A DNA stretch of 51,327 nucleotides from a virus (lineage: Duplodnaviria; Caudoviricetes), in IMG/VR virus record IMGVR_UViG_3300010354_000127, positions 1-51,327 of that record; one strand, written 5' to 3'. Positions within the stretch are counted from its first letter, which is position 1. Every line of letters begins with the position of its first letter. The translations under genes were made by a program, and so were the position numbers. Positions 11,237 to 18,445 of this stretch are shown here, one piece after another. Below the pieces are notes generated by a model. The model searched no databases, had not been told where the DNA came from, and saw only the letters and a program-made list of their open reading frames with translations.

Positions 11237-11303
11237 TCCCATGGACTACCAACCCGCCTGCGGAGCAGGCAATCTCCTACTCGTCAACCCACCATTCGCC
11301 CTC

Positions 11304-11594
11304 ATGACCACGAACATCGACCAGATCCTCGAGGAGCGCGGCAAGCGCTACGGCAGCTTCAGGGGGCACGCGTGCATCACGCAGTGTCTCAAAAAGACCA
11401 TCGAAGCTGGGCTGAAAGACAGAGGAACGCGACTCAGAGATGATCAGCAGGAGGCGCTCGACATGATCTGCCACAAGATCGGCCGGATCATCAACGGCGA
11501 CCCGGACTATGCCGACAGCTGGGACGACATCGCGGGCTACGCCAAGCTCGTCGCCGATCGCCTCCACGCCGAGCAGCAGCAGACCCCTTCGTAG
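11304..11594 (+). CDS. DUF6378-like phage protein
   Basis: ILEERGKRYG...KIGRIINGDP..DSWDDIAGYA. Confidence 0.75.
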   Translation: MTTNIDQILEERGKRYGSFRGHACITQCLKKTIEAGLKDRGTRLRDDQQEALDMICHKIGRIINGDPDYADSWDDIAGYAKLVADRLHAEQQQTPS

Positions 11595-13092: not shown

Positions 13093-13191
13093 GCCGTCTG
13101 TGAAGCATTGTTACGAACGCCGTGCCGTTGGGTGCGGCGTCGTGATGATGGGAGCACCGGGGCGAAGACGCCCCACCACCCCCTGAGAGTC

Positions 13192-15653: not shown

Positions 15654-15730
15654 TGCCAGCGCAGCAGGCACCTGCGCTGTGGGAACGTCGTGGGAACGCT
15701 TCCGGCTGATCTCCCGTAAAACCCTGATCT

Positions 15731-15822
15731 GACAGCGCTGAGCGCCGCTACGCCGCTCATCGCGTCGCCTAGCTGCGCAGCTCCTCGCACCGCCAACCAT
15801 CGGGGGCCTCACCCGAGGCCCC
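15731..15822 (+). ncRNA. Pentamer-repeat unit 1 (putative guide-like RNA)
   Basis: gacAG cgcTG agcGC cgcTA cgcCG ctcAT cgcGT cgcCT agcTG cgcAG ctcCT cgcAC cgcCA accAT, then CG and hairpin GGGGCCTC-accc-GAGGCCCC. Confidence 0.75.
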
Positions 15823-15851
15823 ACACCCCACCCCTGAGCCACCGGCTCACT

Positions 15852-15950
15852 GGTGGGCTGTCCCACCGACCGCCGCGACGCATCGCGACGCTGCACCGCG
15901 CCGTCCATTGCGGCGCTCAGCACACCACCGGGGGCCTGTCTTCAAGCCCC
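15852..15950 (+). ncRNA. Pentamer-repeat unit 2
   Basis: 5' hairpin GGTGGG-ctgt-CCCACC; accGC cgcGA cgcAT cgcGA cgcTG cacCG cgcCG tccAT tgcGG cgcTC agcAC accAC; then CG and a GGGGC...GCCCC hairpin. Confidence 0.75.
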
Positions 15951-15971
15951 TCCATCTATCCCACGAGGACC

Positions 15972-16601
15972 ATGGCATTTCGCCGTTTCCAGCTGACCAT
16001 CGAGGGCACGCGCCCTCTCATCCTGTCCAATCCCTGCACCGTCGACCCCCTGGGCCCGCACGCTGCAGCCATCAAGTACTTCACCGGCCTGAAGAAGAAC
16101 CGCAACGAGCACGCGCTGCGTCGCCTCCACTGGCTGTTCTCCGGCTACTGGGGCACCGAAGGCACCTTCACCTATGGCCCCTCCCTCGATGGTGATTCCG
16201 CCTTCGAGGGCTTCGCTCATCCCTTCCTCCCCGCTCAGAATCTGCAGCGCTGCATCCGTGATGGCGCGACCGCCTGGAAGCTCGGGAAGGACACGAAGCG
16301 CGCGATCGTCGTCGAGGGTGACGCACCACTGGGCTACGAAGGCCCGACCGATGCCGGGCTGATGTACGAAGACCCGCGCTTCGTCTCGATCGCCCCCACC
16401 GGCCGCGGCACCATGGCGGTGCGCGTGCGCATCCCACACTGGAGCGCCAGCTACTCGATGCTGGTCAACGACGAGATCATCGACCCGCAGACGCTGGCCA
16501 AGATCCTCGATCGGGCCGGCATCGCCGAGGGCCTCGGCACCTGGCGTCCAATGCACGGCCGCTTCCAGGTGACGCAGCTCGATGAAGTGGAGGTGGGCTG
16601 A
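15972..16601 (+). CDS. Standalone Cas7/RAMP-like RNA-binding protein
   Basis: N-terminal strand LTIEGTRPLIL, PFLPAQNLQRCIRDGA, and a C-terminal Gly-rich loop AGIAEGLGTWRPMHGRFQV, the layout of RAMP proteins; GAGGA upstream. Confidence 0.65.
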   Translation: MAFRRFQLTIEGTRPLILSNPCTVDPLGPHAAAIKYFTGLKKNRNEHALRRLHWLFSGYWGTEGTFTYGPSLDGDSAFEGFAHPFLPAQNLQRCIRDGATAWKLGKDTKRAIVVEGDAPLGYEGPTDAGLMYEDPRFVSIAPTGRGTMAVRVRIPHWSASYSMLVNDEIIDPQTLAKILDRAGIAEGLGTWRPMHGRFQVTQLDEVEVG

Positions 16602-17104
16602 TGAGGGCCGCTTCGATCGACGCCACCAAGCTGTTCAAGGGGCAGACGATCCCCGGGGAGCTGGTGTGGGAGCACTACGTGAACAGGAAGCCCGACAAGC
16701 TGCAGGCCTGGCTGGATGAGCACGGGGATGAGGAGACCGCCAAGCTGGCGCGGCTGCCCTATGTGCTGCTCCAGGTGAGGGACTGGCTGGAGCGGGACCG
16801 CCGGGAGGCGGAGCTGCCGCCGCTGGTGATGAACACGGTGGGCGGCGTGATCAACGTGCTCACTGACGAGAAGGCCTCGACCTACCTGAACGATCAGGCG
16901 TTCCAGGGGCTGCGGCGGCACCAGCGGGCCACGAACCGGCTGGTGACGGCAGTGGACGAGAGCCGGCTGACGGGTGCCGCGAAGCGTGAGCACCAGAATC
17001 GGATCAACGTGCACAGCTTCATCGCCGCATCGGCCCAGGGTGCGCAGCGTCAGCTGCGGCTGCTGAAGCGCGCTGGCAAGGAGGCGCCGAAGCTGGAGGG
17101 CTGA
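16601..17104 (+). CDS. Hypothetical partner protein, translationally coupled to the RAMP-like gene
   Basis: TGATG overlap; 167 aa; lies between the repeat clusters. Confidence 0.75.
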   Translation: MRAASIDATKLFKGQTIPGELVWEHYVNRKPDKLQAWLDEHGDEETAKLARLPYVLLQVRDWLERDRREAELPPLVMNTVGGVINVLTDEKASTYLNDQAFQGLRRHQRATNRLVTAVDESRLTGAAKREHQNRINVHSFIAASAQGAQRQLRLLKRAGKEAPKLEG

Positions 17105-17107
17105 TGG

Positions 17108-17219
17108 CCTGGGCATCCGTCAGGTGTAAGCCCCAGGACCGCGCCTCTCTCCGCCGCGCCTCGCGACGCGCCGCCTCACACCGCGCCGCCAACCACCGAG
17201 GCCCTGGGCAACCGGGGCC
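17108..17219 (+). ncRNA. Pentamer-repeat unit 3
   Basis: 5' stem CCTGGG...CCCAGG; gacCG cgcCT ctcTC cgcCG cgcCT cgcGA cgcGC cgcCT cacAC cgcGC cgcCA accAC; then CG and hairpin GGCCCTGG-gcaa-CCGGGGCC. Confidence 0.75.
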
Positions 17220-17228
17220 GCCCTTCAT

Positions 17229-17347
17229 CACCCGCTGCAGGCGCATGAGCCGAGCGGGTGCCATCACCGACGCCTTGCCTCGCCACGCCGCGCGTCGCAT
17301 CGCTCCGCACCGCAGCGCAGCGCACCGGCCCCCTCTTCGGAGGGGGC
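17229..17347 (+). ncRNA. Pentamer-repeat unit 4
   Basis: 5' stem CACCCGCT...AGCGGGTG; accGA cgcCT tgcCT cgcCA cgcCG cgcGT cgcAT cgcTC cgcAC cgcAG cgcAG cgcAC; then CG and hairpin GCCCCCTC-ttcg-GAGGGGGC. Confidence 0.78.
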
Positions 17348-17377
17348 ACACCCCACCTCTCAGCTGCTCGGCTGCCA

Positions 17378-17470
17378 GGTGGGCTGATCGCTCACCACGC
17401 CGCAGCGCCGCGCGACTCAGTGCGCCGCGCCGCTGAGCGGCGCATCGCACCGGGCCCCCGCCAGGGGGCC
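17378..17470 (+). ncRNA. Pentamer-repeat unit 5
   Basis: 5' hairpin GGTGGGC-tgatc-GCTCACC; cacGC cgcAG cgcCG cgcGA ctcAG tgcGC cgcGC cgcTG agcGG cgcAT cgcAC; then CG and hairpin GGCCCCC-gcca-GGGGGCC. Confidence 0.78.
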
Positions 17471-17495
17471 TCATCAACCATCACTCACTCCAGCC

Positions 17496-17741
17496 ATGAC
17501 TCTCGCCGCTGCCCAGCAACGCCTCCTGGAGGCGCAAGCCGAACTCACACGGCTGCAGGCCCAGCAGTTCCACGGCATCGGCCGCCAGGTGCGTGATGCG
17601 ATGCACCGGGTCGCGTCTGAAGCCGTGCCTGAGATCAGCGTCATCGCTGGCGGGCTGACTCCCTATCAGCGGGTTGCGATCGAGGGGGTCCTGCAGCGCC
17701 GCATCTCGGACAAGCTGGCCGCCATCGCCGATGGCGCCTGA
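17496..17741 (+). CDS. Hypothetical helical protein
   Basis: 81-aa ORF directly after unit 5. Confidence 0.6.
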   Translation: MTLAAAQQRLLEAQAELTRLQAQQFHGIGRQVRDAMHRVASEAVPEISVIAGGLTPYQRVAIEGVLQRRISDKLAAIADGA

Positions 17742-17778
17742 TGCTGTATCAGCAGCGCACACTTATCACCCAGATCGC

Positions 17779-18165
17779 TTGCGCTGCAGTCGATGTCTTA
17801 TTGAGAACCGCTGAGAATGGCCGATTGTGAACGGATGTAACGCAGGCCAGTGTGACACCTGTGGAAATCGAGTTCTCCACAGGTACGCCCGTACCAGTTC
17901 GGCCAGATCCCTTGCGCCGCAATGTATCTCGGCTGTGGTACGCCCGTATCATTGGGCCTCATTCGGTATCGCCCTGATACCAACGCTGCAACGCCTTGTG
18001 CCAATTTCGGCCCGTTCCGTGTGCAGCGAGTGTGCCAATTTTTTCTGATAGTGCCACTTGCTCACCGGCACACGCACCGGCAGACCCGTTGCGCTGCAGT
18101 CGATCTCGCCGATCTTGGTACGCCCGTACCAGCCGCGTCGGCGCCGCGTCGTGCAACGCCTTGCA
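17779..18165. promoter_or_regulatory. Non-coding region rich in repeated palindromes (putative protein-binding sites)
   Basis: GGTACGCCCGTA(C/T)C at 17882, 17937 and 18117; TTGCGCTGCAGTCGAT twice; further inverted repeats. Confidence 0.55.
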
Positions 18166-18197
18166 GCACATTGGAGCGGTCCCACGCACCACCCCCC

Positions 18198-18386
18198 ATG
18201 GGCGTCATCGCTGACACGCTCCGCGCCTCGCTCCGCGAAATGGCCGCCGCCGACGCGCGGCTCTACCGCGGCCTCGCCGCCGAGCTGGCCGACGCACCGG
18301 CCGCCCGGCCGGCGCTCCCAGCCGACGAGATCGCGGCCGCCATCGCGCTCCTCGAGCGCCACGGCTACACCGTCACCCGGCCCTGA
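18198..18386 (+). CDS. Hypothetical protein
   Basis: MGVIADTLRASLRE...; Ala-rich, 62 aa. Confidence 0.55.
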   Translation: MGVIADTLRASLREMAAADARLYRGLAAELADAPAARPALPADEIAAAIALLERHGYTVTRP

Positions 18387-18445
18387 GCGGGCCGCACACG
18401 GGGCGCCCCCAGGCGCCCCGCCGACCACCCCCCCCGGAGGCCGCC

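Follow-up and report, generated by a model that had tools for sequence, protein, structure and literature searches.

A VIPR locus with a CGC-type guide code in a contractile-tailed phage, and a guide that matches the integrase of its sibling phages

VIPR type II, known from Escherichia phage SUSP1 and a Pseudomonas fulva prophage, combines a RAMP protein gene with a second, coupled gene and carries guides on both sides of the pair; each guide is a run of pentamers (range 9–16) built on a GGY triplet and closed by a structured 3′ tail, and its targets lie in competing elements (10.64898/2026.04.26.720920). VIPR targets are read with a 1-nucleotide skip, on wobble positions in type II, and related consensus motifs are admitted, with NNNGG, YNNNG and NNNNG arrays in print (10.64898/2026.04.26.720920). 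The part of a later source available to us lists 21 non-canonical clusters, such as GAC, CAC, WGT and TGH (10.64898/2026.10.21.760802), and recombinase targeting and solo vrRNAs are described in the accessible part of another (10.64898/2026.10.15.759431). Here we report on a locus in the 51,327-nucleotide IMG/VR record IMGVR_UViG_3300010354_000127 (hereafter the window, meaning that whole stretch), a phage genome rated 100% complete (51 kb) with terminase, portal, capsid, tail sheath and baseplate genes. The locus belongs to VIPR, though not to the canonical GGY type. In our view it is very probably a VIPR system of a contractile-tailed phage, itself probably of picocyanobacteria, which employs a CGC/NNC code and has one of its guides directed against the tyrosine integrase carried by temperate siblings.

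With type II the window shares a homologous RAMP protein, two coupled genes, guides of 12–14 pentamers on both sides of them, structured 3′ tails and a 1-nucleotide skip on wobble positions with a target in a competing element. It differs in its triplet (CGC/NNC in place of GGY), in the replacement of Vipr residues H17, D177, K82 and C173 together with an insertion of ~16 residues, in hairpin tails with structured inter-guide linkers where the SUSP1 clade has a pseudoknot tail, and in a partner that is weakly Vap1-like and a host that is probably cyanobacterial. VIPR itself is thus known, as are the targeting of recombinases and repeats other than GGY; neither the CGC/NNC code nor a cyanophage host turned up in the texts searched, whose Figs S17/S10 may list the clade. 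The terms "CGC" and "cyano" are absent from the main text of 10.64898/2026.04.26.720920 and 10.64898/2026.10.21.760802, Figs S17/S10 and the data files lying outside the text search; "cyano" is also absent from the supplementary text of the former, and a literature search for VIPR with cyanophage returned nothing relevant. The available text on non-canonical arrays describes, as in the window, a fixed non-GGY triplet beside a Vipr-like fold, and 46 of the 62 window units conform to YNNNG; unlike the present case, that text gives no CGC or C-only code, target or residue explanation.

The Vipr protein and its guide tracts

The vipr gene (15972–16601, + strand) encodes a 209-residue protein that the initial annotation, made from the sequence alone, had proposed to be Cas7/RAMP-like and to resemble VIPR. 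Both proposals were borne out. The protein matches SUSP1 Vipr in the PDB (chain 36pp_D, E-value 1e-11) at 25% identity, and its AlphaFold model (pLDDT 88.8) has type III Csm/Cmr and other RAMP subunits as its closest folds (Foldseek E-value 7e-6; Z 10.2 and root-mean-square deviation 3.4–3.5 over 137–153 residues). It shares the RRM core, thumb and G-loop fold of class 1 CRISPR Cas7-group RAMPs such as Csm3 and Cmr4, with a G-loop motif GLGTWR corresponding to GVGDWR in SUSP1, and bears the clade-specific insertion of ~16 residues. We conclude that it is a Vipr, with a fold like that of Cas7-group RAMPs. A Pfam search of four open reading frames (ORFs) gave nothing over cut-off, and PHROGs placed Vipr in a family of unknown function only. 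It also matches 129 phage records at <60% identity. Unlike Csm3 and Cmr4, its pairing is gapped rather than contiguous. Like VIPR generally (Vipr ~20 kDa), the window has a stand-alone RAMP homologue in a minimal phage locus where no cas genes were found; in line with what had been noted before, a PHROGs scan of 58 window ORFs returned no Cas or CRISPR annotation, no dedicated CRISPR-array search having been made.

Five guide tracts surround the two genes on the + strand, two upstream and three downstream, as had been described, together with the hairpin that ends each tract and the stems that precede tracts 2 to 5. Guide 1 occupies 15731–15800 (14 pentamers) and guide 2 15864–15928 (12–13 pentamers, starting at 15869, or at 15864 with one extra unit). 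Guides 3, 4 and 5, at 17137–17196, 17266–17325 and 17391–17450, have 12 pentamers each. With terminal units counted, the total is 62 (14+12+12+12+12), one more than the 61 counted earlier; the accompanying observations, C at position 3 throughout (62/62) and 39 CGC triplets, stand unchanged, and the dinucleotide strings first read from the tracts agree with the sequence. Among the 62 units, 47 have C at position 1 and 46 have G at position 2; every base occurs at positions 4–5. The best phased run has 9 CGC per 10 pentamers; when the entire window was shuffled 200 times by dinucleotide in blocks, no run exceeded 7, a value that came up once, and these five tracts are the only places in the 51-kb window with CGC in at least 6 of 10 phased pentamers. 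The tracts were also considered as a reverse-strand view of a GGC array. This was rejected, because reversal would fix C at position 4, which is free here.

Every tract is closed by an 8-bp GC hairpin (−12.4 to −18.8 kcal/mol), at 15803–15822, 15930–15951, 17200–17219, 17328–17347 and 17452–17471 for guides 1 to 5. Long linker stems with an internal loop stand 5′ of guides 2, 4 and 5 (15827–15857, 17229–17260 and 17352–17383), and a different, bulged leader stem precedes guide 3 (17108–17137), its pattern being found at 23 of 67 unique vipr genes. An inner hairpin with a short bulge recurs in all four stems and is kept in relatives at 40% to 100% protein identity, making them, including the one between guides 1 and 2, candidate guide-processing sites. 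In VIPR types I and V guides are spaced by hammerhead ribozymes. For the window region and 11 loci Rfam lists no ribozyme family and nothing otherwise meaningful, nor does it list any match for the linker and leader stems.

Guide 1 and the integrase of sibling phages

Sibling phages were gathered through homology to two other window genes, blind to the guides. In a first scan of 57 guides against 1.71 Mb with a 1-nucleotide skip, guide 1 matched 10 of 13 dinucleotides in the sibling L157, while 228 shuffles reached 9 or fewer. One other guide, from locus L009, also scored 10/13, at window positions 13127–13165; this match is unconfirmed and may be due to chance. The guide 1 site codes for HVSLQSTRRYAHL, which is the catalytic end of a tyrosine integrase, and the skipped bases fall on wobble positions. 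When a 20-base guide 1 pattern was run against all viral contigs, it hit two, both of them sibling integrases, and the second integrase fits one of the two dinucleotides that had been left open, bringing the match to 22 of 24 bases. Across 2.39 Mb, the best score of guide 1 out of 24 was 17, 22 and 17 at skips of 0, 1 and 2; its shuffles reached 22 in 0 of 3166 cases and 20 in 20 of 3166. A codon-prefix test on 120 integrases pointed in the same direction, with guide 1 fitting 11 of the 13 residues of the motif and none of the other 113 guides more than 8. An exact 18-base guide 1 pattern had no match in viral contigs. These results show that guide 1 has a convincing target in wobble phase, and the earlier suggestion of a gapped target in competing phages thereby holds for this guide.

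Guide 1 follows the rule for natural VIPR targets, a 1-nucleotide skip on wobble positions, as one of the five window guides and one of two among 56 close-clade guides; these two reach 90% at skip 1, compared with 0/56 at skips 0 and 2 and 0/168 shuffles. The arrangement recalls SUSP1 VIPR and the F5 satellite recombinase, where, in the part of the source available, a guide likewise reads recombinase active-site codons in wobble phase (10.64898/2026.10.15.759431). It differs from that case in that the targeted integrase belongs to full-size sibling phages and not to a satellite, and in that the cassette occupies the integrase locus itself.

That locus is visible in the siblings. In L157 and L172 an integrase lies between the same flanks that hold the VIPR cassette in the window; L157 is colinear with the window, with its integrase just ahead of the shared block that resumes at window position 17745. 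No match to the integrase family PF00589 was found in the window. A pair of short direct repeats at 15678–15699 (+ strand), recognised by comparison with L172 and L174, is probably a remnant of integrase arm-binding sites: in the siblings the same pair occurs twice, around a presumed attP core upstream of the integrase, and the window is without the rest of that region. A further sibling, L174, has an intact integrase followed by two solo CGC-type guides (11246–11460, equivalent to L160:18214–18430) and no vipr, much like the solo vrRNAs described in the accessible part of 10.64898/2026.10.15.759431. The tails of these solo guides are window-like, no target was found for them, and the L174 integrase is the poorest guide 1 match (7/13).

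Guide 1 runs antisense to the mRNA of the integrase, which raises the alternative that the guides act on RNA, here the integrase transcript, rather than on DNA. The closest folds of the protein, being type III RNA-targeting subunits, also suit that alternative, as does the capacity of SUSP1 Vipr to form a duplex with single-stranded RNA; yet the full SUSP1 filament needs a DNA third strand, according to the part of the same source available (10.64898/2026.04.26.720927), and the K88 clamp is kept in the window Vipr. A guide at locus L032 (about −244 from vipr) argues in the same direction. It matches L035:9618–9647 over 9 consecutive dinucleotides in codon phase (18/20), a score that is weak alone, with 9 of 1113 shuffles reaching it and 56 guides tried. 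This guide has the sense of the target mRNA and so could pair with DNA only. Overall, we regard action on RNA as highly improbable and favour DNA as the target. The L035 target is a 234-residue gene beside the VIPR locus, and L032's own orthologue matches at only 16/20, so that the L032 guide possibly targets relatives while sparing itself. For the window guides, in line with the lack of self-targeting in VIPR, the best self-matches span 14–17 bases (≤71%).

The triplet code across the clade

Homologous loci were collected in two viral scans (24 and 80), and tracts were sought with a triplet-blind finder and a C-directed one, the latter giving 112 unique tracts at 67 homologous loci. The triplet-blind finder recovered CGC, CTC and TTC beside clade members and, for 4 of 5 reference phages, GGT or GGC; at the threshold of this finder, roughly half of the clade proteins were left without a tract. 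With the C-directed finder, CGC makes up 49% of units in close relatives. Far-clade units are CTC in 25% and TTC in 22%; 58% of them have T at position 2, and 80% have a pyrimidine (C or T) at position 1. Clade units carry C at position 3 in 94–100% of cases (1601/1668 overall, partly by the finder's construction), and GGY appears in 16 of the 1668 clade pentamers and in none of the 62 window units. The only constant feature of the clade is therefore C at position 3, CGC being the consensus of a freshwater-type, GC-rich subclade. The initial annotation had suggested that CGC would be a variant code. A non-GGY triplet is indeed present; the clade-wide constant, on the other hand, is C3 only, and variant triplets were already in print. 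Dinucleotides vary freely among the homologous loci, apart from the last unit, where AC, AA or CA prevails, and guide sets differ between close relatives; phased tracts with other dinucleotides, which the initial annotation had proposed looking for, thus exist.

In the part of the structural work available, SUSP1 Vipr reads G1 through H17 and D177, G2 through R138 and W178, and Y3 through a pocket with R179 (10.64898/2026.04.26.720927). By sequence alignment, the window Vipr keeps R138, W178, R179, K33, G87 and K88, whereas H17 becomes S19 and D177 becomes T190; C173 aligns to E. Across 151 rows of the broad family, equivalents of H17 and D177 are both present in 78, both missing in 48 and single in 25, and thus mostly co-occur, kinship being uncorrected. 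The relatives of the window Vipr form a single branch (support 99) in a tree made by a quick method from 82 of the available rows, with representatives up to P0262 only. Given this correlation, we infer that the S19/T190 replacement caused the code to move away from G1.

A different account accepts the VIPR assignment and holds that CGC is not read at all: specificity at positions 1 and 2 would be lost, C3 alone would set the register, and the contrast between CGC and CTC/TTC would reflect composition and drift. The share of G at position 2 does track contig GC (Spearman 0.61, 29 loci), only position 3 is near-fixed, and the far clade shows its T-rich position 2 and pyrimidine-rich position 1 with the same R138, W178 and R179 equivalents as the window. 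Composition is nevertheless insufficient, because L018 and L019 (GC 0.60) have G at position 2 in only 0.14–0.15 of units and L008, at the same GC of 0.60, in 0.74; moreover, G is avoided at position 1 everywhere (≤11%), which suggests a real preference. We give this account a considerable chance of being right, though one that falls short of even. The idea that triplets drift faster than dinucleotides found no support when homologous guides were compared (12, 11, 5, 17 and 18 differences per position; 12 non-independent pairs, 156 units).

The guide RNA is likely to correspond to the + strand, since a TAnnnT hexamer precedes the first unit by 3–11 nucleotides in 6 of 14 loci, some of them closely related (background 2.7%), and the tails lie 3′. 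Of 55 close-clade tracts, 53 are followed by such a hairpin tail, and the tails keep pairing though the sequences of their arms vary.

Several further arrays were observed along the way. At loci L052–L073 of the far clade (e.g. L059:2900–3900), arrays of CTC/TTC type have up to 6–7 guides, some with at least 20 pentamers; their pseudoknot-like tail is conserved, with paired variation in its stem. Canonical GGC-NN arrays stand beside Vipr homologues in Gordonia phage Trine (L025, 2122–2190), where one array sits within an annotated hypothetical coding sequence, and in Mycobacterium phage LittleE (L028, 1174–1370 and 2660–2950). One far-clade member is present in NCBI nr.

Integrity of the system, neighbouring genes and proposed mode of action

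A number of observations weigh against the interpretation favoured here. The 20-base guide 1 pattern was drawn after the first match had been seen, one guide 1 dinucleotide is fully mismatched in every integrase observed, and an exact 24-base target gave 0 matches in metagenomes. No target was found for guides 2–5 in the sequence searched: a 16-base pattern of guide 5 had 15 matches, none of which extends (16–19 of 24), and guide 3 had none in 44 records at up to 3 mismatches. Only the 2 of 56 close-clade guides mentioned above reach 90%, the L032 match is weak, and none of 52 far-clade guides rose above its own shuffles or found a target in 0.92 Mb. K82, essential in SUSP1, aligns to T100 in the window Vipr. 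A pseudoknot-like tail motif, present in 51 of 54 far-clade tracts, occurs in 0 of 58 close-clade tracts, the window tails being plain hairpins. No promoter was found for the window's own guides, the first of which is without the TAnnnT hexamer, and the low-GC far-clade loci L077, L086, L099 and L104 have vipr and a partner with no tract detected near vipr; their guides may be located elsewhere or written in another code.

Part of this list, namely the change of K82 to T, the missing pseudoknot, the four of five guides without a target and the fixed mismatch of guide 1, would suit a decaying or decoy system that still binds its RNAs, has lost silencing and retains guide 1 as a relic. Decay is hard to reconcile with two ORFs that are intact and conserved (83 and 182 clusters of homologues), with tail hairpins that maintain pairing between varied arms and with guide sets that differ among close relatives. 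We consider it very improbable, and retain the reading of a working VIPR system.

The partner gene (16601–17104, + strand), coupled to vipr, encodes a mostly helical protein of 167 residues with a basic C-terminal helical hairpin. A colinear but weak alignment to Felixounavirus Vap1 over 118 columns (E-value 0.013, probability 3.4%) suggests that it may be Vap1-like; it did not match two other partners, Foldseek gave nothing at E-value 0.001 and just generic helical hairpins (Z ≤7.3), and its Atlas matches are viral clusters without a name. A coupled ORF follows vipr at 84 of 98 loci and is lacking at several far-clade loci; in one such subgroup (L074, L076, L082, L083 and L085) the leader stem and guides come straight after vipr. 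At the right end of the cassette, an 81-residue ORF (17496–17741, + strand) resembles the C-terminal part of small terminase, with 40% identity over 50 residues to the phage's own protein (E-value 4e-5). It also comes after the solo guides in L174 and is possibly a packaging decoy. Beyond it, window positions 17745–18420 form a repeat-rich non-coding block common to the siblings at 77–94% identity, perhaps an origin or packaging region.

Every one of the 105 phage records that match the endolysin is a Synechococcus phage or a cyanophage, and among relatives of the sibling integrase one at 54% identity bears the name Cyanobium; because of these two similarities, the host of the window phage is probably a picocyanobacterium. 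Relatives of Vipr and of the integrase were not found in genome contigs, and a host genome was not found.

We propose that five guide RNAs of ~90–130 nucleotides would be transcribed from the + strand, each pentamer binding one Vipr subunit with the triplet tucked away and the dinucleotide presented. By analogy with SUSP1, the assembled filament would pair with duplex DNA, passing over every third base, and would block transcription, leaving the DNA uncut. The G1-reading His/Asp pair being replaced by Ser/Thr, the code would be CGC/NNC instead of GGY, with a C3 pocket that remains strict. Guide 1 would be aimed at the integrase catalytic-motif codons of temperate sibling phages, preventing either the excision of a resident sibling prophage or the integration of a co-infecting sibling. 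The window phage carries the cassette at the integrase locus and has no integrase of that kind of its own. A broader proposal, which we hold tentatively and judge to be close to an even call, is that the window represents a large unreported branch of cyanophage VIPR in which loss of the His/Asp pair freed the triplet down to a single register C, the 1-nucleotide skip was kept, the code became orthogonal to GGY, and the cassette replaces the integrase and disarms that of temperate siblings.

The natural target of guide 1 shows a gapped code outlasting a change in its scaffold triplet, and two residues offer a testable explanation of triplet reading. Should a CGC/NNC Vipr prove blind to GGY guides, it would serve as an orthogonal programmable repressor of ~23 kDa. 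VIPR warfare would extend to phages of picocyanobacteria and, if the broader proposal is true, within one phage lineage there would be a switch between a lytic form and the temperate siblings it acts against. The exchange of an integrase for an anti-integrase guide would bear on the control of lysogeny in aquatic cyanophages.

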